From a virus (taxonomy: Duplodnaviria; Caudoviricetes): a stretch of 29,192 nt of DNA. The stretch is from IMG/VR virus record IMGVR_UViG_3300020045_002701, positions 1 to 29,192 of that record, one strand, 5' to 3'. The position numbers were made by a program, and so were the translations under genes. A model generated the notes under the pieces. It was given only the letters and a program-made list of their open reading frames with translations, did no database searches and was not told the origin of the DNA. Numbering within the stretch: the stretch's first letter is position 1; every line of letters begins with the position of its first letter. This document shows positions 13,988-28,953 of this stretch, piece by piece.

Positions 13988-14221
13988 TTACATATGATCA
14001 GCCAAATTAGTTTTTAGTGGGGCGAAGGTGAGGTGCCTTTGGTCAAAATAGTTTTTTACCGTCTCTAGACTATTAGACTTACAATGTCGGAAATAGCTTT
14101 CATCTTGATAACACGACATTGTATCCCCCAACCACAGGAATTTAGGCCTCTTAAACCAACCCCCTCTCACTTGAATACCAAAACTACCATCACTAAATTT
14201 TACAATACGTTCTTTAAACAT
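13988..14221 (-). CDS. Small protein with C-terminal motif variant (NLADHM)
   Basis: TAATG coupling; ends PLKTNLADHM*. Confidence 0.75.
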   Translation of the reverse strand: MFKERIVKFSDGSFGIQVRGGWFKRPKFLWLGDTMSCYQDESYFRHCKSNSLETVKNYFDQRHLTFAPLKTNLADHM

Positions 14222-14403
14222 TAATCTTTCTCCATAAATTCATTGACATCAATCTCTTGCACCACTTCGTACAAGGTGAAATATTGACTTTGAAAGCCCC
14301 AACCTGCTTTAGCTTTTCTTAGGTAGGCTTTTACCTCTTCTTCGGTGTCAAACTCCGATACGACACAATTTTCATAGGGACGAAATTCAGACAGGATGTA
14401 CAT
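14221..14403 (-). CDS. Hypothetical protein, paralog of 13507-13692
   Basis: Internal ATG at 14403 (MYILSEFRPYE...) gives a 60-aa protein that aligns end to end with 13507-13692. Confidence 0.65.
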   Translation of the reverse strand: MYILSEFRPYENCVVSEFDTEEEVKAYLRKAKAGWGFQSQYFTLYEVVQEIDVNEFMEKD

Positions 14404-14565
14404 ATTCTTCACACCCTTTGCTGAAATCTGAAAAGGCAATTGGTGGCTTGCCGGGAAGGTCTTTCCACCAACGTTAAGCTCCCTCTGTTCCTGAGAGAAA
14501 TTACGAAAGCACTTTGTATTAGTGCAATCTGATGCACAGAAGGTTTGGTCTTTAAAGCACATCAC
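14387..14565 (-). pseudogene. Cys-rich small protein, probably frameshifted near 14475
   Basis: MMCFKDQTFCASDCTNTKCFRNF... continues plausibly in another frame as RWWKDLPGKPPIAFSDFSKGCEEYVHPV* (14473-14387). Confidence 0.5.
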
Positions 14566-14852
14566 TTCTCAAATTCCTTCTTCAAAGCTTCGTACTGTTG
14601 ACGACGATAATCATCTTGTTTACGTTTGTCCAAATATTCTTTAGCCATTTCAGCTTCTGTTTGAAGACGTTCAAATTCTACAATCATTTTTACATTTGTG
14701 TCTCCATAATCATCATACACCTCAAAATCAATACGAGTTTCCTCTGGATATTGTTCTGCCAGTGTTGTAAGTTTTTTAATGGCATCTTTAATTTTCAAAT
14801 ATCGAACAGAACTTGTAATATTTTCTGAGACGTATTTCATTTTAGGTTTCAT
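14562..14852 (-). CDS. Hypothetical protein
   Basis: Likely start MKPKMKY at 14852; charged helical C-terminus. Confidence 0.7.
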   Translation of the reverse strand: MKPKMKYVSENITSSVRYLKIKDAIKKLTTLAEQYPEETRIDFEVYDDYGDTNVKMIVEFERLQTEAEMAKEYLDKRKQDDYRRQQYEALKKEFEK

Positions 14853-15303
14853 TATCAAATCCCATTCTATATCGTTGCACAATTTTTCTAACATTACCTT
14901 GTTGCTCTTTACTAATGTCAGCAGTTTCTGCTAACGAATAACCAAGGACAAGGTGCAAAACCAAAACACGCCGATGCGCTACATTCTTAACCTCATCAAG
15001 GGTTTTAATCAAAGATTGATCTTCATGATACGCAAAGTCTCCTGAATCTAAATAGTCCATTACATCTACAGTGAAGGGTTGTCGTTTGATAGAGCGTTTA
15101 TGATTCCACATAACAGAGAAGAGGATGGAATTAAACCACCCTTTTAGTGGTCCTTTAGTTGGGTCATACTGGTCTAGTTTTGAGAAGGCTTTAACGAAAG
15201 CCTCTTGAACCAAGTCCTCTGCCATAGCATAGTTACGTAGGTAGTAGTTGATTTTGTATACGTAGCCTTTACGTCCTGTTTTGTATAGGTGTTCTAAGGT
15301 CAT
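14842..15303 (-). CDS. ECF-like RNA polymerase sigma factor
   Basis: Region 2 AEDLVQEAFVKAF...YDP.KG.LKGWF; region 4 HTH (RRVLVLHLVLGYSLAETADI...NVRKIVQR). Confidence 0.88.
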   Translation of the reverse strand: MTLEHLYKTGRKGYVYKINYYLRNYAMAEDLVQEAFVKAFSKLDQYDPTKGPLKGWFNSILFSVMWNHKRSIKRQPFTVDVMDYLDSGDFAYHEDQSLIKTLDEVKNVAHRRVLVLHLVLGYSLAETADISKEQQGNVRKIVQRYRMGFDNET

Positions 15304-17003
15304 GCTTCCACAAACCTCCCTGTTGCTTTGTTATAGAACAAACTGTATTTACCGCTAGAACCCCACACCCGATCCTCGAGCACTCTAAGCTCTCTCGTAT
15401 CTCTAACACTCTCCTCCAAGTCAGGGTCTTTATTCCCCAACAGAGCAAGCATTAGGTGGGCAGAACGTTGCATAGCTCTCGAACCAGCAAACTGTGACGA
15501 GTAGACACTTCCTCCCATTTCGTGTGAGCAATTACCCAAATCGACATATTGTTCTTTCTTGTAATATTGTTGACGTTTATCCTCTGCAATTTGTCCCTCT
15601 GCTGCCTTTAGGTGACAGAAGACGAAAGCTGTAAATTTCAGGTCAGCTGCCATAGCTGAAAGCTCCTGAGAGAAGGCTTGTAGCATAGTGTTAGCTTCCC
15701 CAGAGTTTACACCATTAGACAGTGACGTGATAGGATCAATAAACACAGCCTTTACACCTTCACCAGCAGCTTGCTGAATGTCTTTCTTCAACGTGTCCCA
15801 ACCAAGATATTGATAAAGATTAAGCATGAAAAGCTTGTCTTTCATAATAGCACCAGCACGATCATAGGCTTCTTCATCAAACTTAATCTCTGGGTCGTGG
15901 AAAATCTTTCCTGTAAGTTGATTAGCTAGAAGTTTGTACGTGGTGTCATTAGGTTCTTCTGGGCAAGCCATAAATACCTTAGCGTCATGGTTTTGCATGA
16001 AGTGGGCACCAAGAGCATTCTTCATTGTCGTCTTACCCATCTTAGTACCAGCCCCTAGATAGATAGTTTCTCCAAGACGAATGCCTCGCAAGTCTTTATT
16101 CATACGTGTCCAAGGCCACGACAGTTCTCCCACCTTAGCAGGCTCCTTAGCCTTCTCATGGATTTCTGCTGCTGTAACAATACGGGTGTTCTTAGGGGCC
16201 TCTGCATGGAAAGCTAGGGCATTATAGGCAGCCTTAGACTTACCTTCCATGAGGGCTTGGTTTGCGTCTTTAGTAGGCAGTTTAACACTCTTGGCTGTGG
16301 GGATAGCTAACATAGCTTTCTCAACGGCTAGGTGTCCTGCTGCATCATCATCAAAACATAACACCACCTCTTTAAATAGGCGACGAATATCTTCTGAATG
16401 TTTATTCAGTGTACGTTTAGCTGAGGCACTTCCATGAGGAAGAGACACAACAGCAGGTTTGTAATCGTCTTTACCATACATTTCATAGAAACGGGATACA
16501 GAGGCCATATCTTCTGGCCCCTCTGTGATGATTAGACGATAAGCTCCACTTGACTTAGCATTTACCCAGTTAAGAAGATCACAATCTTTAGTGTCTCCCA
16601 TGTTGAATGGTGGACGGCCTTTATCAAGAATTTTAACATGATAGCCTGTAAGTTTTTCGTTCTTAGTCACAGGCCAATAGATAGCTGTAGGTGTTTTACC
16701 ATCTGTCTCAGACACAGACACCTTAGCATCAAAATCTTCTAATGTAGCTGCCCTAAGTTTACGCTGTGGGACATCTAGTGTTTGGTAGCCGTCAACCTCT
16801 GCAATCTCAGCAGCAATCTCAGCCTCTGTCTTTTCTCGTCGCTTTGGTAGATCAGAGACAGTGCGATTATCGCCGTATGGGTTAGGCACAGGTTTGTGGC
16901 AGAAGAAACAAAAACCGTCCACTGTCCCATCATCTTGTGCGAAAACCTTTAATGCTTTTCTTGTTCCACATGAATGCGGAAGTGAATCAATTTGTATTCC
17001 CAT
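15300..17003 (-). CDS. DNA primase-helicase (T7 gp4-like)
   Basis: Zn-binding N-terminus (HSCG...FCFFC); TOPRIM ITEGPED and CFDDD; Walker A GAGTKMGKTT; FIDP. Confidence 0.95.
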   Translation of the reverse strand: MGIQIDSLPHSCGTRKALKVFAQDDGTVDGFCFFCHKPVPNPYGDNRTVSDLPKRREKTEAEIAAEIAEVDGYQTLDVPQRKLRAATLEDFDAKVSVSETDGKTPTAIYWPVTKNEKLTGYHVKILDKGRPPFNMGDTKDCDLLNWVNAKSSGAYRLIITEGPEDMASVSRFYEMYGKDDYKPAVVSLPHGSASAKRTLNKHSEDIRRLFKEVVLCFDDDAAGHLAVEKAMLAIPTAKSVKLPTKDANQALMEGKSKAAYNALAFHAEAPKNTRIVTAAEIHEKAKEPAKVGELSWPWTRMNKDLRGIRLGETIYLGAGTKMGKTTMKNALGAHFMQNHDAKVFMACPEEPNDTTYKLLANQLTGKIFHDPEIKFDEEAYDRAGAIMKDKLFMLNLYQYLGWDTLKKDIQQAAGEGVKAVFIDPITSLSNGVNSGEANTMLQAFSQELSAMAADLKFTAFVFCHLKAAEGQIAEDKRQQYYKKEQYVDLGNCSHEMGGSVYSSQFAGSRAMQRSAHLMLALLGNKDPDLEESVRDTRELRVLEDRVWGSSGKYSLFYNKATGRFVEA

Positions 17004-17015
17004 TTAGTTCCTTTA

Positions 17016-17261
17016 TTACATATAATCTTCTAAGTCTACTTCTTCTTCCCTACAAGGGACAAAGTATTTAATTTTGGTACAAGCTTCACATTTCCCATCT
17101 AAAGACTTAAATGTCGCTACCTCTTTGTCCCATGAAGAAACGTTAGAGAGTACCCAAACAGCCTTGTCCCAATCAATATTGTGCCTATTAAAGTAGTCCT
17201 CATGGGACTGCCTATTAACCTCCCCGCACAGGGACATCATAAACTTATACTTTACAACCAT
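17016..17261 (-). CDS. Small tagged protein (ends DLEDYM), family A
   Basis: AAGGAG SD; C-terminal motif; similar to 17252-17491. Confidence 0.8.
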   Translation of the reverse strand: MVVKYKFMMSLCGEVNRQSHEDYFNRHNIDWDKAVWVLSNVSSWDKEVATFKSLDGKCEACTKIKYFVPCREEEVDLEDYM

Positions 17262-17491
17262 TCTGACAGCTCCTTTGTTGGAACAACGAGGTGGAAATAG
17301 GACATCTGTGTATATAACTCTCTACCTGTTTTCTCGTCTTTGACAAAAACTTGGAAGGAGTTTTTATATTTCACATCTGCAACCCAGACCACATTTTTCC
17401 AATCTACTCCATAGTCTTTAAACCACTCAAGATAAATCTCTTTTGTATAGTTGTCTTCTATAAGGTCGATATCAAATTTTAATCTAAGCAT
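17252..17491 (-). CDS. Small tagged protein (ends ELSEWL), family A
   Basis: GGGAG SD; C-terminal motif. Confidence 0.8.
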   Translation of the reverse strand: MLRLKFDIDLIEDNYTKEIYLEWFKDYGVDWKNVVWVADVKYKNSFQVFVKDEKTGRELYTQMSYFHLVVPTKELSEWL

Positions 17492-17494
17492 GTC

Positions 17495-17764
17495 TCACTC
17501 CCAATGTTCTAAAGGTTTAGGATTTAAAAATGCCAACTCTGAGCTATCTACAGCAACAGAGGGATCACCAAAAAAGTCTGAGGGGGTTGCAAGAACAATT
17601 TCAAAAGGGAAATTTGTCCCATCTTGTACAACCCTCTTAATTACAACAAGTTGGTTTGTGTTTTTCTCGCCTCTTCTCCAATCCCCTAGATAAATATCTG
17701 TGGACAAAACCCCCAGAAAAATAAGCTGATCCCCCACTTTAGGAATGTGGTCTCCAATGCTCAT
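17495..17764 (-). CDS. Small tagged protein (ends KPLEHWE), SH3/KOW-like, paralog of 18754-18999
   Basis: IGDHIPKVGD...ELAFLNP. Confidence 0.8.
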   Translation of the reverse strand: MSIGDHIPKVGDQLIFLGVLSTDIYLGDWRRGEKNTNQLVVIKRVVQDGTNFPFEIVLATPSDFFGDPSVAVDSSELAFLNPKPLEHWE

Positions 17765-17765
17765 A

Positions 17766-18023
17766 TTACATCCACTCCTCTAAATTTGTTTTAGTTTCCA
17801 ACTTAGTCAAATCATCCCTACGAAGTAGAAAATCTAACCTAAGTTTGTCCTCATCATAAACCTTAATCCCAACCCTGTTTTCAAAAGATGGCTCATTATA
17901 CCTCTGAGGGTCTTTAACCTCAAACACTGTGTCAAACGACACACCCACCGCTGGGAGCCACTTTTCGTATTGGGCATAACGTCCATTTCTTACCACCTTA
18001 TTGATATCAATTTTTACGAGCAT
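17766..18023 (-). CDS. Small tagged protein (ends NLEEWM), family A
   Basis: C-terminal motif; Y..WL..VG pattern. Confidence 0.8.
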   Translation of the reverse strand: MLVKIDINKVVRNGRYAQYEKWLPAVGVSFDTVFEVKDPQRYNEPSFENRVGIKVYDEDKLRLDFLLRRDDLTKLETKTNLEEWM

Positions 18024-18024
18024 G

Positions 18025-18270
18025 TCACATCCAGTCTTCTAACGGTTTAGCTGACAATGGGAGTAGCACTTTTCTGTACCAATTGTATGTTTTGTCCTCA
18101 ACACCTGCAATCACTGTGCCCCCATTAAACCCCCCAGAATCAACTAGAGTTTGATTTCTTCCCAGTGTGAGGATAACATCAGGAGTCCAACCAACACTAC
18201 TCAGCCAGTGTAGGTAAGCTTTTTCTTCATGAGCCTCCTTAATCACATCCCAATTAATTATCACTCGCAT
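18025..18270 (-). CDS. Small tagged protein (ends KPLEDWM), family A
   Basis: TAATG coupling; C-terminal motif. Confidence 0.8.
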   Translation of the reverse strand: MRVIINWDVIKEAHEEKAYLHWLSSVGWTPDVILTLGRNQTLVDSGGFNGGTVIAGVEDKTYNWYRKVLLPLSAKPLEDWM

Positions 18271-18545
18271 TACATGTAATCCTCTAGGTTAACTGGTGTA
18301 GAAATAACGGGCCTCAGTTCACTTTCATGCATACGATAATGCCAACTTCCTCGCTGTTTTCCATTGTCTTTTACCATTATGCAGGTGTACACACCTTCTT
18401 CTGGCCCCCAGCGGTTTTCATGTCCGGGAACATGACGGATAACTTTATAAAGACGTTTCTCTCCGTCTCTAAAAGCCCTGTACTGAGCTTCCCACCCAAA
18501 ATAATTATCCGCCACCACTTCTACAAGTGTTCCATTTGGAAACAT
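18270..18545 (-). CDS. Small tagged protein (ends NLEDYM), SH3-like
   Basis: Start MFPNGTLVEV at 18545 (TGATG overlap); ends ...HESELRPV and then the motif. Confidence 0.8.
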   Translation of the reverse strand: MFPNGTLVEVVADNYFGWEAQYRAFRDGEKRLYKVIRHVPGHENRWGPEEGVYTCIMVKDNGKQRGSWHYRMHESELRPVISTPVNLEDYM

Positions 18546-18757
18546 CACATCCAATCCTCTAGTGATTTAACTTCTACACCCCGTTCAAAGAACTCCTCTA
18601 ACCAAACTCCACCCACCTCTTTAAATACAACTTCTGGGGAGTTATAGGTTAACACAGTTACGGGTTGATTAGGGAGAATCCAAGCTTTTTTACAATAGGT
18701 GGTCCAACCCCCATCTTCATACCTTTTCCCCCTAAACCATTTTTCACCAACTTTCAC
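18545..18757 (-). CDS. Small tagged protein (ends SLEDWM), SH3-like
   Basis: GTG start overlapping the upstream stop; MKVGEK. Confidence 0.8.
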   Translation of the reverse strand: MKVGEKWFRGKRYEDGGWTTYCKKAWILPNQPVTVLTYNSPEVVFKEVGGVWLEEFFERGVEVKSLEDWM

Positions 18758-18999
18758 ATCCAGTCTCCTAAATCAGATACAGAGGGTTTGAGGAAGGCCA
18801 GCTCTGTTGCACGTAGATTATATCCGTATTCTGGTTTTCCTTCAAACAGCCCAATCACTTGATAACAAAAATCTCCTTGACTGTAGACACGTTGAATGGT
18901 GACAATCTTGCCATTGTGGATAGACCCACTTTTTTCTGCAAAATTTACCACCCTAAATCTCTCTCCTACTTTAGGTGTGTAGTCTCCAATATGGTCCAT
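18754..18999 (-). CDS. Small tagged protein (ends DLGDWM), SH3/KOW-like
   Basis: IGDYTPKVGERFRVV...ELAFLKP. Confidence 0.8.
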   Translation of the reverse strand: MDHIGDYTPKVGERFRVVNFAEKSGSIHNGKIVTIQRVYSQGDFCYQVIGLFEGKPEYGYNLRATELAFLKPSVSDLGDWM

Positions 19000-19012
19000 A
19001 ATAATCCCTTTG

Positions 19013-19855
19013 TCAAGATGCGAAGAGAGATTTATTTTTATTGAAGATGTTCAGGTCAATCTCAGACCAGTTACGAGAGTAGAGGGCGTACTGGATATTA
19101 CGAATACCCGTGCGGATACGGTCTTCCGTAACAAAAGGACGAAATACTTGATAGGAACTACCAAGAGCCGTCTTAGCAAACTCCGTGAAACCAAGAGCAG
19201 AAGCTTCCCCAAGGATGTCTGTGGGGCAGGAGATGGTCTTGGCAAACTCCTTAAGTTGGTTCAGAACAGCAGCCCACTGCTTGATCTTATTAAAATCAAT
19301 AGTAGACTCAAGGGCACGAAACTCAACAGAACCATACTTAAACAAGCTGGTGATGTTCAAGCTTGCATAACGCAAATCTTCTGTGTTCAACGACTGAAGA
19401 TCGGAGTTGGCAATGGCTTCACTGATCATGTCCAATGTATAAGAGGCATCAGACATACGGAGACAGAAGTGGTTCCCGCTACGAGTTTTATCGCAATATG
19501 ATAGGAGAACTTCCTCAAACATAAAATACACAGCAAGGAAAGTCATTAGCTGCTTTGGTGTGAGGTCTTGGACATTAACATGAACATGGATACCAGCGCG
19601 ATAGGTTGGTTTCACATTCGTGTTGTGAGAGGTGAGAGCTTTACTAAGCTCCCCAAAAGCCTTGTCAAGGTCTGCAATAGGGAGGGGCTTACGGAGGACA
19701 AATTCCCCACTCTCTCCCCGAAGGGATGGGTCTCTCTCAAGACGCCAATGTTTGCAAACTGACTCTGCGCTAGGCATACCATCAGCTTCCATTTCAATTT
19801 CTACACCTACATCCCCAATTTGCGGGGAACAAGGGATAATATCTACGATTCTCAT
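19013..19855 (-). CDS. Putative amidoligase (COOH-NH2 ligase, glutamine synthetase/GCS fold)
   Basis: GVEIEME, DPSLR...EFV, AGIHVHVN, RYASLN and GSVEFR motifs. Confidence 0.88.
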   Translation of the reverse strand: MRIVDIIPCSPQIGDVGVEIEMEADGMPSAESVCKHWRLERDPSLRGESGEFVLRKPLPIADLDKAFGELSKALTSHNTNVKPTYRAGIHVHVNVQDLTPKQLMTFLAVYFMFEEVLLSYCDKTRSGNHFCLRMSDASYTLDMISEAIANSDLQSLNTEDLRYASLNITSLFKYGSVEFRALESTIDFNKIKQWAAVLNQLKEFAKTISCPTDILGEASALGFTEFAKTALGSSYQVFRPFVTEDRIRTGIRNIQYALYSRNWSEIDLNIFNKNKSLFAS

Positions 19856-20421
19856 GCGGCCTCCATAGCGGATGTAAGGTGTTGTTCAAGGAAGAATTTG
19901 TCTGGGGACAGAACAGGAACGTCTTTGATAATTCTTCCTACAGTGTATTTTCGATAGATCAGCAACAACTCACCAGTTTTGTCACTTACCCCAAAATCAC
20001 GAGAGAAGGCCATAGACCTATTTCTCGTTTTCTTGTTGTAAGTCAAAGCTTCTTGATAACTGGGGAACTTATTAAGAATGGTGTGCGTCAAAGAAGAGAG
20101 GTTAAAATCTCGTTTATCCGCACCATACAACACAAGGCTATTGGTTGACAACCCTTGTCTCCAATCCTTCCTCATAGGTTTTCTACATGCAAAAACCATT
20201 TTTCCCCCAATATTGAAAAACCCTAGTGGGACAGGGGTGAGGTCAAGATCATCCAAAGCAATCTCAGATGCTTCCATTGTCACCTGATCCACACCAAGAC
20301 AAAACACTCGCCCACCACTTTTAGATGTTGAGTGGACATAGAAAGGATTGCCATTGGCTTTCCTAATCAATGTCATGTCAAGTCTTTTAGCAGCATATTC
20401 AAGGTTATCGTTATACATCAA
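19852..20421 (-). CDS. Hypothetical protein in the ligase cluster
   Basis: 189-aa ORF with an AGGAG SD, lying between the two ligases. Confidence 0.8.
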   Translation of the reverse strand: MMYNDNLEYAAKRLDMTLIRKANGNPFYVHSTSKSGGRVFCLGVDQVTMEASEIALDDLDLTPVPLGFFNIGGKMVFACRKPMRKDWRQGLSTNSLVLYGADKRDFNLSSLTHTILNKFPSYQEALTYNKKTRNRSMAFSRDFGVSDKTGELLLIYRKYTVGRIIKDVPVLSPDKFFLEQHLTSAMEAA

Positions 20422-20428
20422 TGTCTCC

Positions 20429-21310
20429 TTAAAACTCAGCTGGGTCTTTTTTCTTTTTCGTCTCTGGGGCTGGGATCAAATTCTCACGATAGAACTTGGG
20501 GGATTTAACACCACCATACTCAAACAAGTAGGAGAGGACATCTTTCCACCCCTCTTGTTTGTTGATCACTTGTTGAGCCGTCAAACCGTAGTGATTTTTC
20601 TCACCAATAGTAGGGTCGTCAAACGTAGCTTTGATAGCGTCAATAGTGTTGTGATAAACCAAGGAACGAAGGATAGGGTTGTTGATCCACTTATTGCTAA
20701 GGACTCGGTATTCCATACCATAAGGTTTGGGACGGAATGCCCCTGCGGCCCCGTACAAGCCTCGCCGACGTTCATCTTGGTCCCAGACAAGGGAGGGTAC
20801 ACCAAGGTATAGGTCAAGGCTCTTGGTGAGCGTTCTACAAGCCTCTAGATGGCCCGGATCATTGATATCAACACCACTGGTCCAACCAACATGGACATGA
20901 CCAGAGGCTGTACGGAAAGGAGTGTTCTCGTTAGGACGAGGATTGGCCTCTCTCGTATAAGCGTTGTAGTCAGGAGAGCAACCAAGCTCACCAGCTTCTT
21001 TGGGTTGAGACTTGATATAGTCCAAGCCAAAATCTGCCACAGGCTCAATGAACAACTCATAACCGGGGACCATCTTTGTAATTTCCTCAAAGACAGTGGA
21101 CATATTCTCCTCAAACTGAGAATACGAATCAGCGGGGTCAATATTAAACTCCAAAGCCATACCGTCAACTTGGACAGCCCCTTTGTCCACCTTAAAGGGA
21201 TTTTCTTTCGATCCGGGGATTAGGCCATGTGCAGACCACAGTTTCCCGAAACGCTTAACGAAAAATTCCGGGTCAGCACCAATTTTAATATCGTAGCCAT
21301 TGACTTTCAT
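20429..21310 (-). CDS. phiEco32-like COOH-NH2 ligase type 2
   Basis: IGADPEFF, DGMALEFN, GCSPDYNAY, RTASGHVHVG and RRGLYGAAGAFRPKPYGMEYRVLSN motifs. Confidence 0.92.
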   Translation of the reverse strand: MKVNGYDIKIGADPEFFVKRFGKLWSAHGLIPGSKENPFKVDKGAVQVDGMALEFNIDPADSYSQFEENMSTVFEEITKMVPGYELFIEPVADFGLDYIKSQPKEAGELGCSPDYNAYTREANPRPNENTPFRTASGHVHVGWTSGVDINDPGHLEACRTLTKSLDLYLGVPSLVWDQDERRRGLYGAAGAFRPKPYGMEYRVLSNKWINNPILRSLVYHNTIDAIKATFDDPTIGEKNHYGLTAQQVINKQEGWKDVLSYLFEYGGVKSPKFYRENLIPAPETKKKKDPAEF

Positions 21311-21313
21311 TCT

Positions 21314-22693
21314 TCAGTTTCCTTGTTTTTTGGTGTAGGTTTCAACATAAGGCAGTAGACGGCAAGCGCCACAATAGAAGGTGGTTTTATCTGCCCACAA
21401 CAGGTCTTCTCTTTCTCCCCACTCAACGGAGATACCACAGCAGTCACAACCTTTTTGCGTGTGTTCTTTGAAGGCTTCAACATTAAGACGAATTTTTGGA
21501 TCAAACCAAGGAGCAGATTGAGACTCTGCCCCCTTAATAATAGAAAATCCGCCCTCTTTCTTCAGCTGAATCCTGACATCAGGGAGCAGCGTGACAAATT
21601 TCAAATCAGACCAGTTGCACCAATAATCTTCTTTTTGTTGCAACACATTTTTGAAAAGCTTAGGGGCCACATAGAAGCCATTACCTTTGGGTGTGACAAG
21701 CTTGTCTTTCGCCTCTAGATACTTACTTTGAGGGATAACAATCCTCACTGACGACCCATCCATAGTCGTACCAAAAGCTGTAGGTCTGTTTGGGATGTTA
21801 TGAAACTCTGTGATGATCAACTGACTAGCAGTTTTCTGCACAGGTTTCTTTGTTTGTGGTTGTTGTTGATTATTTTGAGAGGGGGGAGTCCAACCCTCCC
21901 AACCATCGTAATAATTTCCACCTCGGCTTTGCCCGTAATTGTAAGAGGCTTTCCACTTTTCGACGAAAGGGGGGACCGGGGTTTCCGTGTGAAATACCTC
22001 CTTTGCGTCATTGAGCTGGAAAGTGTAGAGCTGATCTGGCTTACACTCCATAATGTCGTGTCGATTAATACCATTCCTACTCATACCTACAGCAAGCATC
22101 CAAGATTCTGAAGCCCAAAACACTTGCTTGTTGTCTTTGCTGTAGCAAAAGAACAAGGGACGTTGAATATTACGAATAAGGTTAAGCTGCTTTCGTTGTT
22201 TGTCATACCATGATAGGGCTAAAGCCCCATCAGCGTCTTTCCAAACTTCTTTCACATCTTGGGTATGAGACAGATGGCTATAGATAATTTGAGAGTCAAT
22301 CTCAAAGTCTTTATACCCAGCAAAGTCTTTCATAGACCATTTATTGACAGTGCCATTATGTGCCCCAACAGCATTATCAAACTCAAATGGGTGAGCATTG
22401 GCAGAGGTGACAGCCCCTTGTGTGGCATAGCGATTATGCCCAATGAAGATGTCTACAGGTTTTGCTGTAAGCGAACGTCCCTTTTTCCAAAGATTGTGCT
22501 CCCAGAAGAACTCTGAAGCTCCACCAAGGCTCTTAAACAGTTCAATTTCAGTTTTACCGTCATACGCATTTGAGATGGCAGCTACACCAGTGGAGTCTTC
22601 TCCACGAAGAACGTCAAGATAAAGAAGGTCGTAAAAGACTTTCTTAGCATTTTCCGGGAGGGCTTCCCCGATTACCCCTACAAGGCCACAAAT
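21314..22693 (-). CDS. Class II (Ntn) glutamine amidotransferase with C-terminal extension; ATT start
   Basis: Frame extends 120 codons upstream of the listed ATG to ATT-TGT-GGC-CTT-GTA-GGG (xCGLVG). It includes RGEDSTG, GHNRYAT, NAHPF, HNGT and DSQ. An AAGGAG SD lies 7 nt upstream. Confidence 0.9.
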   Translation of the reverse strand: MCGLVGVIGEALPENAKKVFYDLLYLDVLRGEDSTGVAAISNAYDGKTEIELFKSLGGASEFFWEHNLWKKGRSLTAKPVDIFIGHNRYATQGAVTSANAHPFEFDNAVGAHNGTVNKWSMKDFAGYKDFEIDSQIIYSHLSHTQDVKEVWKDADGALALSWYDKQRKQLNLIRNIQRPLFFCYSKDNKQVFWASESWMLAVGMSRNGINRHDIMECKPDQLYTFQLNDAKEVFHTETPVPPFVEKWKASYNYGQSRGGNYYDGWEGWTPPSQNNQQQPQTKKPVQKTASQLIITEFHNIPNRPTAFGTTMDGSSVRIVIPQSKYLEAKDKLVTPKGNGFYVAPKLFKNVLQQKEDYWCNWSDLKFVTLLPDVRIQLKKEGGFSIIKGAESQSAPWFDPKIRLNVEAFKEHTQKGCDCCGISVEWGEREDLLWADKTTFYCGACRLLPYVETYTKKQGN

Positions 22694-22704
22694 AGCGAAG
22701 CTCC

Positions 22705-23325
22705 TTACAGATTAAAGAAGGTTTGAATGTATCCGAAATACGTTGTCTGACAATCGTGGTCAATATCAACATACTCTGGATGAGGTTGATAACACAAACT
22801 ATTGGTGTTTGCGTAGAACACAGCCTCAATGTCTGGATTTGTACCTCCCACCTCTTGCACTTCCCAACCTTGCTTGAAAGTTGAGCAATCAGCAGTTAGG
22901 AGGACAATTGCGTCAGTGGAAGGGATCATCATTTGGTGATGTGTAGAAGTCACCATAATCTCTTCCCCAGTCATTTGGTCAAGAGCTGTGTGAACCCCAC
23001 GGAGAGCATGGCCTGTTACATGTTGCCACATTTTCCCCCCATTCATAACGTTTAGGAATTGTGCTCCACGACAGATACCAGCCATAGGTACTCGTCCATT
23101 AAACTCTAGATAAATCTCTGCTTCTCGTGCATCCCTGTTTGGGTTAGAAAAGGTGGCAGGGTGAGCTTTCTCTCCGTAGTAAGAGGGGGTTACATCTTCC
23201 CCTCCCGTGAATTGGACAAGAGAAATGTTGTCGTCCAACGCATTGTGCGTAACCTCCCAACCGTTCATAGCAAACATCTGGGAAATCTGGCTGTCTAGCC
23301 CAACAATCAGCACTTTATTCCGCAT
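22705..23325 (-). CDS. Class I glutamine amidotransferase-like / peptidase C26 (gamma-glutamyl-gamma-aminobutyrate hydrolase family)
   Basis: TGGEDV.P..YG, RD..E, GICRGAQ, STHHQ and QPHPE motifs. Confidence 0.92.
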   Translation of the reverse strand: MRNKVLIVGLDSQISQMFAMNGWEVTHNALDDNISLVQFTGGEDVTPSYYGEKAHPATFSNPNRDAREAEIYLEFNGRVPMAGICRGAQFLNVMNGGKMWQHVTGHALRGVHTALDQMTGEEIMVTSTHHQMMIPSTDAIVLLTADCSTFKQGWEVQEVGGTNPDIEAVFYANTNSLCYQPHPEYVDIDHDCQTTYFGYIQTFFNL

Positions 23326-24193
23326 TTAGAATCCTCTCCAAGATTTGCTCAAGAACGTTTTTAAAGCCTTCTTCAGTGGTGTACTCCCAACCATCTGTCT
23401 TAATCTTTTCAAAGATGTTAAGATTTTTCTTACTCTGACTGTCTTTTGGACGGACAGTCTTGATCCACCGCATAAAGGCATCAGTGGAAGCAACAGAAGG
23501 AGTTTTCCAAACAGCATTTACATCAACATCATAACCCTTGTAATCTCTTAGGGTAATGTTTTGTAGATTTTTTGGCGTGCCAAGGAGGAAGTTTCTGTAA
23601 TAGGACTCAGCTTGCCCCCCTAGATGGAAGATGCCATGTCCTGCAACCAAGTCTGTAAAAACTACAGAGTAGCGAGATGTGTTGGATTTAACGAAAAGGT
23701 AGGAGAGAATAAGGGCTTCTTCTTCCTTAAAACCCAAACTCAAGATATGTAGATAAGTGGCAAACCTGTTTGCAATGGAGGGGGTGTAGCTTTCACTGAA
23801 AGCCCTAGTGGCAATAAGCGCACTAGCAACGAAGTTTGCAGGAAAGTTGGCATCTACCACCCAACCAAGGGAAAGAACGGCGTCTGCGTCTTTCTCAACG
23901 TGCATTGCCGACCAAGGACTTCTATTCACCATCCAATCAATATATGGTTTTACCTCCTTTTCTGTGTACTTGTGGTCTTGCACAGACGACAAAATGTATT
24001 TGATAGGAAGCTTCACGCCTTTATCAAACAACTGGTATTTTTGCAGAGCACCGTGACAAGGGCCATCCCCCAATTTTTTGTAGGTTAGTTCTCCTCCATC
24101 TTCTAACACCAACCCTACAAAAGCATTACGTGCTGGAAAAGATTCTGCTTGTCCAGCAAAACAACCCCTAATATCTTTAATATTCTCTAACAT
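23315..24193 (-). CDS. Hypothetical protein in the ligase cluster
   Basis: 292-aa ORF with a GAGGTG SD; no family recognised. Confidence 0.8.
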   Translation of the reverse strand: MLENIKDIRGCFAGQAESFPARNAFVGLVLEDGGELTYKKLGDGPCHGALQKYQLFDKGVKLPIKYILSSVQDHKYTEKEVKPYIDWMVNRSPWSAMHVEKDADAVLSLGWVVDANFPANFVASALIATRAFSESYTPSIANRFATYLHILSLGFKEEEALILSYLFVKSNTSRYSVVFTDLVAGHGIFHLGGQAESYYRNFLLGTPKNLQNITLRDYKGYDVDVNAVWKTPSVASTDAFMRWIKTVRPKDSQSKKNLNIFEKIKTDGWEYTTEEGFKNVLEQILERILNAE

Positions 24194-24201
24194 GTATCAC
24201 C

Positions 24202-25068
24202 TCAGACAAGGATTGCATCAGGAGTGAGGGCAGGATGGATGAATTTTTTCCATCCACCACGTTCCTCGGTTACAGGGATAGCAGCTTTGCCGTGCTCAAT
24301 CAAATAGTCGAAACATTTCGACATACACTCTTGACGATAAGGGCTGGTTTGCGAGGGGGCAGAATTGATCTCAATAACATATGGACGACCATCTGCATCA
24401 AGCATCACATCAACAGCGCCAAAATCAAGCCCTGATAGGAGGAAAGCTTCACGGCTAACCCTAACAGCTTTGAGAGGCCACTCTCCCCAATTCACATTGT
24501 CAAAGCGACCTCCACGGGCCACATTCCATGCAACATCTTGGGGATTGCCCGGTGTCTTCTTAGCTACCCAACATACACGGCCCTGTACGAACGTCACACG
24601 GTACTCAGAGACCTTATCAATGAAGGGGCTGGCATACCACCCTGCTCCACATTGCTGCGTTGCTAGGGCCATCTCAGCCTCTGTACGGGCCAAGTGAACA
24701 TTACGTCCTTGGGAATGTGTTGCGGGGCGAACGACAAGAGGAAAATCATACCCTCCGTGAGGTGTATCCTCCCCATCAAAATACGTGAATGGACATAGCG
24801 GGTAGGGTTGATCTGGGTCATCTACGTAATCATCCATCAACACTTGACGGAAGCCAGCCTTATTCCCTACACGATGAATGGCCTCTGCCGTATTAACAAC
24901 ATCACGACAAGGGACATTGCTTGTCGTCCCCCAACGAATGACCATAGTGGTGTCAGCAGGGAAGGGCTTGTCATTGCGAATGACAGCATCAATTTTGCTC
25001 GACATACGAACAATTTCTTTACAGGAAGTGCGCCCAAGTTTCTGGCGACGAAGCATTACAACGGTCAT
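24202..25068 (-). CDS. ATP-grasp peptide ligase (RimK/YheC-D-like)
   Basis: IRWG, FPLVVRP..HSQG, EYRV, WNVARGG, LDFGAVD and VIEINSAP motifs. Confidence 0.9.
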   Translation of the reverse strand: MTVVMLRRQKLGRTSCKEIVRMSSKIDAVIRNDKPFPADTTMVIRWGTTSNVPCRDVVNTAEAIHRVGNKAGFRQVLMDDYVDDPDQPYPLCPFTYFDGEDTPHGGYDFPLVVRPATHSQGRNVHLARTEAEMALATQQCGAGWYASPFIDKVSEYRVTFVQGRVCWVAKKTPGNPQDVAWNVARGGRFDNVNWGEWPLKAVRVSREAFLLSGLDFGAVDVMLDADGRPYVIEINSAPSQTSPYRQECMSKCFDYLIEHGKAAIPVTEERGGWKKFIHPALTPDAILV

Positions 25069-25394
25069 AGATAGTCTCCTAGGTTGATTTCTTTCTGAGG
25101 GGCACGAAGTCTTTTCAAAACTTCCATCACCATACCTGCGCCCAGACTTATCGGCACTCCGTAACTCAAATCGCTATACTCACTAAACCAGTTCCATCTC
25201 CAAGGAACACCTTTTTTACGAATTTCCTCTGCTGCAAAGTCCCAGATAAAAGCCCCACTAATATGGCCGGGATTTGCTAGGAGATTGTTGGCAATTACTG
25301 GTAGTGGGAGGTATTTTCTTTGTGTCCAGAGGGTGTCTTTATAGTAAGCCTCTCTAAGAGCATCAGCTGCTTTATCTAAATCCTCCGGTGACAT
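25065..25394 (-). CDS. Tagged protein (ends NLGDYL), family C
   Basis: Start MSPED at 25394 (TGATG); similar to 25394-25726 and 27607-27924. Confidence 0.8.
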   Translation of the reverse strand: MSPEDLDKAADALREAYYKDTLWTQRKYLPLPVIANNLLANPGHISGAFIWDFAAEEIRKKGVPWRWNWFSEYSDLSYGVPISLGAGMVMEVLKRLRAPQKEINLGDYL

Positions 25395-25726
25395 CACATC
25401 CAATCCTCAAGTGATTTGGCAACAGGGGGGTGGATCATCATTTTAAAGACTTGTTCAAACAACACAGCTCCCAGTCCAAACCCATCTCTATAATCTTTAA
25501 AACGCTCTCTAGAGATATCCACACCATACTCGGACAAGGCTTTTACAGCACCGTCCCAAAATAGTAATATATCTATATTACAACGTGCATCAAGACAACT
25601 TTCTGCCACTTCTTTTGGTGAAAGACCTCTTTGGTAAGACGTTTGGCAACCCCTAAACACATCTGGTCTTAAGAGAAGGTTAGCAATTTTTGGTGCTAAA
25701 GAGATTAACTCAACCCCATTGGGCAT
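25394..25726 (-). CDS. Tagged protein (ends SLEDWM), family C
   Basis: GGGAG SD; aligns with 27607-27924. Confidence 0.8.
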   Translation of the reverse strand: MPNGVELISLAPKIANLLLRPDVFRGCQTSYQRGLSPKEVAESCLDARCNIDILLFWDGAVKALSEYGVDISRERFKDYRDGFGLGAVLFEQVFKMMIHPPVAKSLEDWM

Positions 25727-25995
25727 ATCTGCAAACTCCCTGTTTTTCCTTCGTCAAGTTTTAGTGGTTCTGGTTGCACCCAACCAACAGCAGGAATGAC
25801 GTATAGTGTGTCAGGTTGATCACCATCCCCTTGAACTACGAGGAAAGAGTGACCACCAAGGTTAAATTCAATCTCGGTATCTGCCCAAGCGGTTAGACGA
25901 TTGGTATAAACCACTTCGTCACAAGCTTTGTGTGATAGGACCACCTCTGAATACGAAGAGGGGTAGCCCCATTGATAGTGAAGATCAGCGTCCAT
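25705..25995 (-). CDS. Hypothetical protein
   Basis: Likely start MDADLHY at 25995 with an AAGGA SD. Confidence 0.65.
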   Translation of the reverse strand: MDADLHYQWGYPSSYSEVVLSHKACDEVVYTNRLTAWADTEIEFNLGGHSFLVVQGDGDQPDTLYVIPAVGWVQPEPLKLDEGKTGSLQICPMGLS

Positions 25996-26629
25996 TTTCT
26001 TTTCCTTTGATGATGGCGCGGATTTCTTCTGCATGCCGTCCGAAATGTAAAGGCGTTTCAGCACATTGCGCCCACACTTCCAACTGCGCCACTGTCACCA
26101 CCCGCGTCTGCTCATTTTGAGCTACATCCGCTGCGGGCTGACCAGCTAGATTACGGATCACGTCAACAAGCTGACATTTCAGCGTATCCTTGAAGTTCTG
26201 GCTATCGCAGTATTCCCCCAATGCCCTTGCTGCGTCCGCTAACCCTGCAATGTAACCTTTACCGCTACGCGCTGCGGGCTGTGGAGCGGGGCGGGCGTCG
26301 TGTTGGGCGGGTGTGATGAGGGCGCGGATGCGACGTGCCGCCTCTCCAGTAGCTTCACAGTATCCTTCGGACCAATCATCAGCCCCATCACCTCTGCGCA
26401 TTGGCCGATCATCAGATGTATAGGCAGCGACCTTTGCCGCTGCCTCCAGCGCAGCGGCGACCGAGGCTTGGGACAGGTCGGTGCGGGTGCGGTCGTTCCA
26501 CGTCACTTTCATAATTGGCCCAGATGCGCCGCAGTTTGTGCAATACGGGTATGGCCGAAGCCTCGTAAGTTCGCGGTCAATTCCGTGGCTTCCGCAAAAC
26601 GGGCATGGCAATAATTCAATCGCGCTCAT
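25985..26629 (-). CDS. Protein with N-terminal Lar-like (restriction alleviation) Zn ribbon
   Basis: ELLPCPFCG...YCTNCGASGP...WNDR, followed by Ala-rich segments (AALEAAAKVA, ARRIRAL) typical of temperate-phage early genes; GC-rich. Confidence 0.75.
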   Translation of the reverse strand: MSAIELLPCPFCGSHGIDRELTRLRPYPYCTNCGASGPIMKVTWNDRTRTDLSQASVAAALEAAAKVAAYTSDDRPMRRGDGADDWSEGYCEATGEAARRIRALITPAQHDARPAPQPAARSGKGYIAGLADAARALGEYCDSQNFKDTLKCQLVDVIRNLAGQPAADVAQNEQTRVVTVAQLEVWAQCAETPLHFGRHAEEIRAIIKGKENGR

Positions 26630-27117
26630 GTCTTCGGCTCCTTGTCGGCTGTGGGGGTGAGGGCTTGGCGGGCAGCGATAAGCACCTGATGCGCGTGATA
26701 TTCACCCATATCGACAGGGCTGTGTCCGCAATTCATCGGTTCGCTGTGGCTTTCCATTTCGTCTCCGCAGCAACAAACACCGTCCGCCATGTCTGCATGT
26801 TCAATCGCGGCAACGCATCCGGTCAGCGCCTCGGTCAGCGCCTTCACCCGCCCCACTGCGGCGGCTTCGGATGCCCGCAGCGTGGCGTTCTCGGCGGCGA
26901 GGGTGAGATACGCTGCTTCAATGTCGGGTAGGCGGGCTATGCGGCGGGCATCAATCTCAGGCGCACCAGCATTGTTTGAACCGAAGATGCGGTCCATAGC
27001 GCCCGGCTGACGCACTGTATGGCCGACGCGCGTGTATTCGTACACCCACGGCCCCGGCGTTCCTGCTTCGCGGTCAGCCACCATCTGCGCCACCGCTTCC
27101 GGCGATAATCTAGTCAT
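26626..27117 (-). CDS. GC-rich hypothetical protein of temperate-phage type (Ead/Ea22-like)
   Basis: Start MTRLS at 27117 with a GGAGG SD; TPGPW...DARRIA..PD motif, coiled coil, CCCG...CGH. Confidence 0.7.
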   Translation of the reverse strand: MTRLSPEAVAQMVADREAGTPGPWVYEYTRVGHTVRQPGAMDRIFGSNNAGAPEIDARRIARLPDIEAAYLTLAAENATLRASEAAAVGRVKALTEALTGCVAAIEHADMADGVCCCGDEMESHSEPMNCGHSPVDMGEYHAHQVLIAARQALTPTADKEPKT

Positions 27118-27152
27118 CTCAACCTCCAAAAATATTTATTTTCTCAGACCCC

Positions 27153-27182
27153 TTGACAAGGCCCCAAAACAAACTATATACT
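27153..27182 (+). promoter_or_regulatory. sigma70-like promoter, antisense to the surrounding genes
   Basis: TTGACA (27153-27158), an 18-nt spacer and TATACT (27177-27182), with an AT-rich upstream element, in the largest clear intergenic gap. Confidence 0.55.
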
Positions 27183-27215
27183 ACTAGGGGTTTAATTATT
27201 AAAACTAATTAATAA

Positions 27216-27605
27216 TCATTCTCCCCAGTAATAATACTTATTATTATTATACTCTAATGTACTACAAATACTAAGACGAGAGGGTTGTTCTAGCATCTCG
27301 TAGATGTATGTCTCTACATCATCACCATTCACTGTTGCTTTAATCGTATTACGACGATACCAATCAGGGTGTCCTTCCAGACGATCACAACGAGCAACAT
27401 GATTGTCGTCTACTTCCCAAATTTCCCCTTTGATAGGAAGCATTGGAAACCCATCTCTGTATTTCGTATAAGCAATGGGGAAGCCACCATTAGCGAGAGC
27501 ATAGGATTTGTGTGAGTAAGCGTCTCCAACAAACCTAGCACCTTCAAGCAAACGATTGTTCCCCCAACCACGCTTCAATGTTCCATAAACCATAAGTAGT
27601 TTCAT
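27216..27605 (-). CDS. Gamma-glutamyl cyclotransferase (AIG2-like)
   Basis: VYGTLKRG..N..LL, GEIWEV and DRLEGHPDWYRR motifs. Confidence 0.93.
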   Translation of the reverse strand: MKLLMVYGTLKRGWGNNRLLEGARFVGDAYSHKSYALANGGFPIAYTKYRDGFPMLPIKGEIWEVDDNHVARCDRLEGHPDWYRRNTIKATVNGDDVETYIYEMLEQPSRLSICSTLEYNNNKYYYWGE

Positions 27606-27606
27606 A

Positions 27607-27924
27607 TTACATCCAATCTTCTAGGGGTTTAGTAGTAGGGGGGTTAAGCATAGCCTCAAACATAGCTTCAAAGAACTCGTAATTATACTCATAATCTGAG
27701 TAGGATTCAAAATCCTCCTCGTCAATCTCTATCCCATACTCTTGAAACAACTTAGCACACTCTCTCCATTCAAAAAGGTTTGAGAAAGTGTCTGTTGGGT
27801 CTTCCCGGTAATAGCTTAAGAAAACTTCCACCCCAAGCTCATCGTTGTCAAACCTAACCTGCTCAAAGTTACCGGGAGTTAACAGGATCATACCTGCTGT
27901 AATCCCTTCTGATCTTGTCACCAT
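27607..27924 (-). CDS. Tagged protein (ends KPLEDWM), family C
   Basis: Start MVTRSE at 27924 (TAATG); acidic. Confidence 0.8.
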   Translation of the reverse strand: MVTRSEGITAGMILLTPGNFEQVRFDNDELGVEVFLSYYREDPTDTFSNLFEWRECAKLFQEYGIEIDEEDFESYSDYEYNYEFFEAMFEAMLNPPTTKPLEDWM

Positions 27925-28142
27925 TACAACCAATCCTCAAGAGGTTTTGGTTTGGAGAGGACCAGATCAAAATAGGTTGTAGTCCAAGTAAATTCCACTT
28001 CTTCTAACGTGATAATGCTACCAGAAATCGTCTTAATCGTCACAACCTCGTCAACACCACGTAATCCTTTTCTACAAAAGGTTTTCCACAACCCCTCTTG
28101 GTCAATGAGTTTACGTCTAATTAAACTCCCTACAACAAACAT
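27924..28142 (-). CDS. Small tagged protein (ends KPLEDWL), SH3-like
   Basis: AGGAG SD; FVVGSLIRRK. Confidence 0.8.
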   Translation of the reverse strand: MFVVGSLIRRKLIDQEGLWKTFCRKGLRGVDEVVTIKTISGSIITLEEVEFTWTTTYFDLVLSKPKPLEDWL

Positions 28143-28151
28143 AGTTTTCTC

Positions 28152-28379
28152 CTACATATATGATGATAGGTCAATACCCTCAGAAGAGATGTATGGTTCA
28201 AAACATTTAGCTGCAAAAAGCTTTGTGCTTCCTACGAGCCAGAGTTCTACTAGGTTTTGATGGTCAACCACAAACACTGCATCAGCGGATGTCTCTATGG
28301 GCCTGTATCTCCCCCAAAAAGGGTCTTTTTGCGCCTCAACCTTCCTACGAACTTTTTGACCTCTGCTAAATGTTGTCAT
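28152..28379 (-). CDS. Small tagged protein (ends DLSSYM), SH3-like
   Basis: FSRGQKVRRK; motif variant. Confidence 0.8.
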   Translation of the reverse strand: MTTFSRGQKVRRKVEAQKDPFWGRYRPIETSADAVFVVDHQNLVELWLVGSTKLFAAKCFEPYISSEGIDLSSYM

Positions 28380-28465
28380 TTTCCCTTGCCTTTTTCAGCC
28401 TGCTTCTTCATCGCCTCTACAGCGTAGTCCCCCAATCACGAAATGCCATCTGCTTTTCCTTCCCG

Positions 28466-28699
28466 TTAAAGCCAATCAGTTAGCGGTTTTGGTTTAGGTC
28501 TTGAGATAAGAACAAAGCAGTTGTGGTCAAACCCACAACTAATCTCTTTAAATCTCAATACCCCCATATAGTTTTTAACTACTGTTAGAGGGCTGTTAGG
28601 AGAAATCTCTCCTGTCTTACAAGCATACAACCATGCAGGAGAATCCTGATATGTTTTGTGTCGCCTGACGACAGCTCCGGGTTGCATATCTTTTGTCAT
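28466..28699 (-). CDS. Small tagged protein (ends KPLTDWL), SH3-like
   Basis: MQPGAVVRRH; ATGA coupling. Confidence 0.8.
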   Translation of the reverse strand: MTKDMQPGAVVRRHKTYQDSPAWLYACKTGEISPNSPLTVVKNYMGVLRFKEISCGFDHNCFVLISRPKPKPLTDWL

Positions 28700-28953
28700 A
28701 ACCAGTCCTCTAGAGGCTTAGCCTCCACAGCAAAGTCAAACCATTTGGCTCTCCAAGCCCCCCTACCAATTAGGTGTCCTTGGTAGGTAACATGGACCTC
28801 ACAGTTCACCGACTCTTCTGCCAGAAGTCTAGTAATAGTAACAGCGGTATGTGGACTTACTCCTAAATCCTTCATGTATTCACACCAATGATTCCAACCA
28901 TAGCCGCTGTCTGGCTTACGGACAATCAAATCCCCAATTTTAAACTCTGCCAT
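28696..28953 (-). CDS. Small tagged protein (ends KPLEDWL), SH3-like
   Basis: GGAGG SD; FKIGDLIVRK. Confidence 0.8.
   Translation of the reverse strand: MAEFKIGDLIVRKPDSGYGWNHWCEYMKDLGVSPHTAVTITRLLAEESVNCEVHVTYQGHLIGRGAWRAKWFDFAVEAKPLEDWL

Follow-up and report, generated by a model that had tools for sequence, protein, structure and literature searches.

In the phiEco32-type gene neighbourhood of phages, which Iyer et al. reportedly described in 2009, a COOH-NH2 ligase type 2 (PF14395) and an Amidoligase_2 (PF12224) are said to stand together with class I and class II glutamine amidotransferases, an ATP-grasp ligase and GGACT. For phage amidoligase neighbourhoods, cell wall modification has been proposed as a role in the available passages of one study (PMC10580990). 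[quoted passage not shown] The viral record IMGVR_UViG_3300020045_002701 (Caudoviricetes), of which the whole 29,192-nucleotide stretch was analyzed (the window), holds the full phiEco32-type set, and it also encodes sixteen small proteins that share a C-terminal tag, L-x-x-[WYH]-[MLE]-stop, whereas tagged small proteins are not mentioned in the passages of PMC10580990 at hand. We infer that this shared tail is probably a docking tag on a modular library of proteins.

All sixteen C-termini reported by a first-pass annotation of the window are present, and all are encoded on the minus strand. The strict motif ends 16 of the 58 coding-strand genes, which comprise 16 of the 36 that encode fewer than 150 residues and none of the 22 larger ones. 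Searches of Pfam and PHROGs with the sixteen tagged proteins gave a match for none of them. The background frequency of the motif is 0.12%, both at internal positions of the window proteins (10 of 8,640) and at the C-termini of co-oriented open reading frames in related phages outside the clade described below (5 of 4,166). Against 0.07 tagged ends expected, 16 were found (binomial P ~1e-33), although such P values overstate certainty, since the members of a single clade cannot be counted as independent. Eight tagged genes lie between the amidoligase and the primase, seven lie upstream of the ATP-grasp gene around the cyclotransferase, and one (13988) stands apart; fifteen of the sixteen thus form two arrays that flank an amide-bond cassette. 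In the following list, a gene is coupled if the next start lies at -1 or +2 and the remaining tagged small genes count as uncoupled; RBS stands for ribosome-binding site.

13988..14221, minus strand: tagged protein, 77 residues, TNLADHM; set apart from the arrays, downstream of the sigma factor, and followed by a gene with its own RBS
17016..17261, minus strand: tagged protein, 81 residues, VDLEDYM; last before the primase-helicase, uncoupled (GAA GAT)
17252..17491, minus strand: tagged protein, 79 residues, KELSEWL
17495..17764, minus strand: tagged protein, 89 residues, KPLEHWE; terminal Glu coincident with the GGAG in the RBS of the following gene
17766..18023, minus strand: tagged protein, 85 residues, TNLEEWM
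18025..18270, minus strand: tagged protein, 81 residues, KPLEDWM
18270..18554, minus strand: tagged protein, about 91 residues, VNLEDYM; family common to several clade genomes
18545..18757, minus strand: tagged SH3-like protein, 70 residues, VKSLEDWM; the window's best match to an SspB-tail profile
18754..18999, minus strand: tagged protein, 81 residues, SDLGDWM
25065..25394, minus strand: tagged protein of the second payload family, INLGDYL
25394..25726, minus strand: tagged protein of the second payload family, KSLEDWM
27607..27924, minus strand: tagged protein of the second payload family, KPLEDWM
27924..28142, minus strand: tagged SH3/KOW-like protein, 72 residues, KPLEDWL; modelled as a barrel with a helical insert
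28152..28379, minus strand: tagged SH3-like protein, IDLSSYM; uncoupled, tag without Shine-Dalgarno
28466..28699, minus strand: tagged SH3-like protein, KPLTDWL; uncoupled
28696..28953, minus strand: tagged SH3-like protein, KPLEDWL

The DNA of the tag, typically CTA GAG GAT TGG ATG TGA TG, holds the Shine-Dalgarno sequence of the next, overlapping gene. Among the tagged small genes of the clade, a Shine-Dalgarno-like word falls within the tag in 50 of 57 coupled genes and in 6 of 43 uncoupled ones; of these 43, in which the tag persists, 37 have no Shine-Dalgarno there. The codon for Glu-4 is GAG in 40 of 43 coupled and 4 of 16 uncoupled tagged genes, a pattern that is repeated in a second lineage, whose genes end in LENK (23 of 23 coupled, 1 of 4 uncoupled). 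As this GAG bias follows coupling, the RBS sets the acidic "ED" codons. The unusual Glu at the end of KPLEHWE (17495) falls together with a GGAG positioned for a start 6 nucleotides past the first base of the stop. The RBS overlap does not account for Leu-5 or for the aromatic residue at -2: in the same genomes, untagged genes that are coupled show Leu or Ile at -5 in 7 of 98 cases and an aromatic residue at -2 in 2 of 98. The rarity of these residues and the persistence of the tag in uncoupled genes lead us to reject the RBS as its sole cause.

Codon variety had been taken as a sign of selection on the peptide. This argument survives for Leu-5, for which six codons are used across the clade tags, but not for Glu and Asp, since the choice of Glu codon tracks translational coupling and is not independent evidence. 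Within the window, identity over the last 21 nucleotides of the sixteen genes averages 56%, and 88 of the 120 pairs differ synonymously at Leu-5. Orthologues preserve the peptide as well, as all five of those of the uncoupled gene at 13988 retain [ND]-L-x-x-H-M at 56-84% identity. Since the tagged genes had been chosen by their motif, an additional search was made with payloads stripped of their last ten residues, and it returned 48 tagged and 3 untagged family members within the clade; two of the three hold a tag in another frame, past a one-base slip. Such slips in short runs put the tag out of frame near position 3456 of contig L144 and near 12488 of L145, and they are either assembly errors or a natural on/off switch of the tag. 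Selection on the tag peptide, acting independently of the RBS, is thus supported. The tag likely arose from a Shine-Dalgarno/stop/start junction, and the junction DNA may also make the swapping of payload genes easier.

A scan of viral and metagenome contigs for cassette genes led to nine further contigs bearing the LEDW-type tag. The ten form one clade (support 0.993 in a tree of 135 COOH-NH2 ligases) with 101 tagged ends, each genome carrying 9-16 different tagged genes. The Pro/Lys linker seen before the tag in the window does not extend to the clade, "KP" being a flavour of this window; the clade-wide core reads [S/N/D/K/P/E]-L-x-[DE]-[YWF]-[ML]-COOH. Other flavours are specific to their genomes, such as ITSLEEYM in G002 or the Lys or Arg at -4 in 10 of 12 genes of L145. 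One array is directly next to the primase-helicase gene in all clade loci that were displayed. In four clade genomes that are complete or nearly so (G001-G004), tagged genes are located near the cassette on the early strand, and two short open reading frames of 40-41 residues match the pattern away from it. A scan of viral contigs for the tag DNA gave 10 stretches, with arrays in clade contigs only and none in six others.

Beyond the clade, 150 of the 168 cassette loci of at least 8 kb were scored untagged, three of which were later found to be weakly tagged (L019/L105, L055). Other lineages carry other tags, namely LENK/LENE, KGNK, EELI and MEEYL. In the examined region of the cultured phage CVT22 (L351:346-13250), 17 of 41 genes end in LENE or LENK, and the cultured phage Klyazma (L223) has 12 genes tagged in this way, whereas no tag array was seen in Slicky01 and PA11. 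A search within 10 kb for a gene family exclusive to tagged phages found none but small clade-specific genes. L006, a sister lineage of the clade, has a different, KEEEML-like tag and two COOH-NH2 ligase genes; small genes of L022 end in SSB-like tails (DEIPF, EAIPF), and L055 has two further mini-tags (EVAYG-like and YAPK-like). One Klyazma gene (L223:25075-25554) is annotated as a putative proteasome beta subunit, for which the Pfam match is weak (E 0.09).

The domains that precede the tag fall into separate families, as had been proposed from the window; judged from sequence and models, the set appears to comprise barrels of the SH3/KOW type, one helical family and strays acquired by capture. 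In the model of the 27924 protein (predicted local distance difference test, pLDDT, 87), the main payload family is an SH3/KOW-like barrel with a helical insert, followed by a linker and then the tag, which is modelled as a one-turn helix (residues 68-71) at lower confidence. The top structural matches are SH3-like without pointing to a specific family (Z 5-6; root-mean-square deviation 1.7-2.9 for the first three), and fold searches with this model and with a 189-residue cassette protein gave generic SH3/KOW/Tudor matches only; in the ESM Atlas, a payload had no match of at least 0.9. The second payload family, of about 100-130 residues, aligns separately and is helical as predicted from sequence, and many other payloads are singletons. 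For one payload of G002, a close homologue that lacks the tag exists outside the clade (E 9e-22), which suggests tag capture.

A profile of the main payload family retrieved 409 proteins among 1.84 billion representatives. The best 150 of the 409 comprise 89 short tagged proteins, 26 that are short but end in a variant or different tail, and 35 that are longer, a set that is biased to tagged proteins because the profile contained the tag. Elsewhere, the barrel occurs with other tails, in tandem repeats, or N-terminal to DUF3310 or DUF6378 domains, DUF3310 being fused behind it in 4 of 33 long matches scanned. Such fusions and repeats are as expected of a portable binding module, which the barrel appears to be. 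P0018, P0024 and P0082 are long proteins with 4 to 13 stretches matching the payload profile; P0024 may be low-complexity noise.

The window as a whole corresponds to the arm of a Zobellviridae-like podophage that carries replication and early genes, among them those for a family A polymerase, a primase-helicase (52% identical to that of PA11), a sigma factor, ThyX and PhoH. A ribonucleotide reductase is encoded as well and shares 74% identity with its counterpart in Roseobacter phage CRP-9. From this likeness to CRP-9, a roseobacter is a plausible host, whereas matches to a structural gene of G002 are to mixed metagenome-assembled genomes (MAGs) and not host-diagnostic; no tRNA was found in a scan of the window. 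Between the two upstream tagged groups, the stretch 25985-27129 is GC-rich (59% in 26001-27000 vs 44% overall) and consists of a gene with a Lar-like restriction-alleviation domain and a second gene. It looks like a recent acquisition, and no relatives of it were found when they were sought for a link to a host. The amide-bond cassette, which the first-pass annotation had overlooked together with the overlap of the tag with the next RBS, spans 19013 to 25068, with the cyclotransferase apart at 27216. COOH-NH2 ligase type 2, Amidoligase_2, ATP-grasp and glutamine amidotransferases are found by Pfam and PHROGs in this one neighbourhood:

19013..19855, minus strand: Amidoligase_2 (PF12224; Pfam), 280 residues, without the long acidic-aromatic tail common in untagged relatives
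19852..20421, minus strand: conserved cassette protein (phrog_11055), 189 residues, with a predicted N-terminal SH3/Tudor-like barrel (pLDDT 96); candidate reader
20429..21310, minus strand: phiEco32-like COOH-NH2 ligase type 2 (PF14395; Pfam, PHROGs)
21314..22693, minus strand: class II glutamine amidotransferase (Pfam); the open frame starts with ATT, then Cys
22705..23325, minus strand: class I glutamine amidotransferase / peptidase C26 (Pfam)
23315..24193, minus strand: conserved cassette protein, 292 residues, with invariant C46 and R130 and near-invariant E134 and H186
24202..25068, minus strand: RimK-like ATP-grasp ligase (Pfam, PHROGs)
27216..27605, minus strand: gamma-glutamyl cyclotransferase (PF06094), within the upstream tagged array; present in 7 of 10 clade contigs

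The ATT that precedes the Cys at the catalytic position of the class II glutamine amidotransferase is likely its start codon, at which standard calling of open reading frames shortens the gene. The 292-residue protein is possibly a metal-dependent enzyme, to judge from Cys46, Arg130, Glu134 and His186; it has no ESM Atlas match of at least 0.9, and neither it nor the 189-residue protein has a significant match in a sequence search of the PDB. The full cassette is also present in the Zobellviridae PA11, Klyazma, CVT22 and GP100, and 319 records of cultured phages have an amidoligase cassette.

It is possible, if short of probable, that the phage's own amide-ligase cassette reads the tag, and among the candidates it is ranked as the most likely reader, ahead of ClpX, another hub, a purely DNA-level origin, covalent ligation and virion packaging. 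The tail of each small variable domain would plug into one pocket on the cassette, and the variable domains would serve as interchangeable substrate receptors that deliver host targets, possibly defence proteins, to the cassette enzymes, by which they might be covalently modified. In other lineages, LENK/LENE, KGNK and MEEYL genes are interleaved among the cassette genes. Amidoligase_2 itself usually has a long variable tail, whose end is acidic with a terminal aromatic residue in 37 of 111 untagged sequences vs 1 of 19 tagged ones, which suggests that the small proteins provide in trans a tail that the ligase elsewhere carries in cis. In GP100 (L352:9063-9947), L017, L020, L087, L091, L092 and L100, where tagged arrays are absent, the enzyme ends in FP[ND]EPLEDY, which from its sequence looks like the tag in cis. 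The genome-specific flavours of the tag, set beside the near-invariant ClpX zinc domain of candidate hosts, also fit a phage-encoded reader, for which the 189-residue protein, with its modelled barrel, is a candidate.

Several observations weigh against the cassette as reader. Its genes occur in 108-145 of the 150 loci scored untagged, so it does not require tags, and a search within 10 kb revealed no reader gene particular to tagged phages. The acidic-aromatic end is absent from 74 of 111 untagged amidoligases, and 23 of 113 are short-tailed in phages where no tags were detected. Arrays of EELI genes stand apart from the cassette, on the downstream side of the primase. Adjacency may simply reflect the variable early region. 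Charge covariation with the L145 tag was seen at one site (Lys175 of the 189-residue protein), at the background rate. Tagged genomes also represent a handful of lineages, so that counts are not independent. A wider proposal, which must be considered doubtful, is that Zobellviridae run a programmable system of protein modification (or protease delivery), in which a conserved amide-ligase core is served by fast-evolving, swappable receptors whose tail was co-opted from RBS junctions independently in several lineages, as a viral analogue of modular E3 ligases.

Among the alternative readers, ClpX is unlikely, although it has a specific resemblance in its favour. The tag would mimic the SspB tail of the host and tether its proteins to the ClpX zinc-binding domain, as phage-encoded adaptors that direct host targets to ClpXP, or as competitors, and XB peptides do bring ClpXP to tethered targets (available passages of PMC12373786). 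In 24 SspB tails taken from the family to which a Roseovarius MAG belongs, the sequence is E-[VI]-V-S-L-D-x-[FW], then R-K, and the G002 tails EVVNLEEYM and IVTSLDQYM come close to them. Against an SspB profile, the tags have a median score of 6.4, vs -0.5 for untagged C-termini and 1.3 for shuffles, and 28 of 100 clade tags exceed the 99th percentile of other termini. However, this profile was picked after the resemblance had been noticed, only 3 of the 16 window tags lie above its threshold, and the Asp of SspB directly follows Leu in a tail with a basic end, while the acid of the tag comes one residue later and the end is hydrophobic. The LENK/LENE tags of enterobacterial relatives are also unlike the betaproteobacterial tail LTRVK, and the roseobacter host, though plausible, is itself inferred. 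Docking on another single hub of host or phage, through a pocket for acidic-aromatic C-terminal peptides, for example one of the SSB-tail or clamp type within the replication machinery, is likewise improbable. The SSB-like protein of the phages ends in acidic and aromatic residues in 73 of 85 sequences, as amidoligase tails do, and the position of the array next to the primase-helicase gene would suit such a site. Moreover, L-x-x-aromatic-hydrophobic resembles the PIP-box and T4 clamp-binding tails. Yet the tag ends in Met or Leu with the aromatic residue second to last, and the Gln that stands three residues ahead of Leu in a PIP-box or clamp-binding motif is found (at -8) in 2 of 101 tags, which sets the tags apart from that class. 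Nor was there a conserved host gene with the tag DNA end in 61 genomes of the Rhodobacteraceae family (6 of 61, scattered and at control level).

Still less can be said for the shared end as a DNA cassette of Shine-Dalgarno, spacer and stop/start overlap that spread by recombination with the peptide as a by-product, which is very unlikely. The LEDW, LENK, EELI and KGNK tags all overlap the RBS of the next gene, the Shine-Dalgarno-like word is concentrated in coupled tags, the genome-specific flavours are consistent with concerted evolution, and one CVT22 copy reads SLINE. Set against this are the coupled untagged genes that lack Leu-5 and the aromatic residue, the low nucleotide identity of the window tags with their synonymous Leu codons, the exchange of Trp, Tyr, Phe and His at -2, and the retention of L-x-x-H-M in uncoupled orthologues. 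A chemical role, in which a cassette ligase would activate the carboxylate at the C-terminus and join the small protein to a metabolite or a target in the manner of Pup or LysW, has similarly poor prospects. The tag is strictly terminal, it has a RimK-like ATP-grasp enzyme, two carboxylate-amine ligases and a gamma-glutamyl hydrolase/cyclotransferase as neighbours, and its E-D-W resembles the LysW tail; but Glu is terminal in 1 of 101 tags, the final position is variable (M, L, A, K, I, V) without Gly-Gly, and the payloads are modelled as folded barrels. Least probable is a virion-packaging address by which payloads would be injected with the DNA. Hypervariable small early proteins with one common terminal peptide follow the logic of T4 internal proteins and their capsid-targeting sequence, but that signal is N-terminal and cleaved, and a literature search turned up no virion proteomics.

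The tag is of interest beyond this phage. The amide-ligase cassette occurs in hundreds of cultured phages, and no tested function is stated for it in the available passages of the literature. The tag, borne by nearly half of the phage's small proteins, offers a direct handle on the reader and makes more than 100 hypothetical proteins classifiable at once, and the cultured CVT22 with its LENE/LENK genes makes the question testable now. On more than one occasion, an overlap with an RBS appears to have become an address label on a protein. A search of the literature, supplements excluded, found no description of such a tag, and neither LENK nor C-termin nor amidoligase occurs in the main text of the Klyazma paper, as far as available (PMC9960094). 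What is new here is the natural experiment provided by the RBS, the link to the amidoligase tail, the comparison with the SspB tail including its mismatches, and the cultured test systems.

Three further systems help to place the tagged proteins. In LysW and the amino-group carriers, the side chain of a C-terminal Glu is ligated, and Pup is disordered and ends in Gly-Gly-Glu/Gln. The tagged proteins are similar in that they are small, have a conserved acidic C-terminus and are encoded beside RimK-like and glutamine-synthetase-fold ligases, but they have no general terminal Glu or Gln, carry barrel payloads and are encoded by many different genes per genome; neither an amino-group carrier nor a Pup-like modifier matches their termini or the folded barrel model. 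The capsid-targeting sequence of T4 shares with the tag the use of a single address peptide on hypervariable small early proteins; it differs in being N-terminal and cleaved, whereas the tag is C-terminal and occurs in a podophage. SspB offers a partial likeness. Its core, [VI]-V-S-L-D-x-[FW], differs from the tags in the register of the acid and is followed by R-K, where the tags end in Met or Leu without terminal basic residues, and the tagged proteins are many paralogues with unrelated domains. They are nevertheless built, as far as the models go, like SspB, with a folded domain, a linker and a short C-terminal peptide that is partly similar to the tail of roseobacter SspB.

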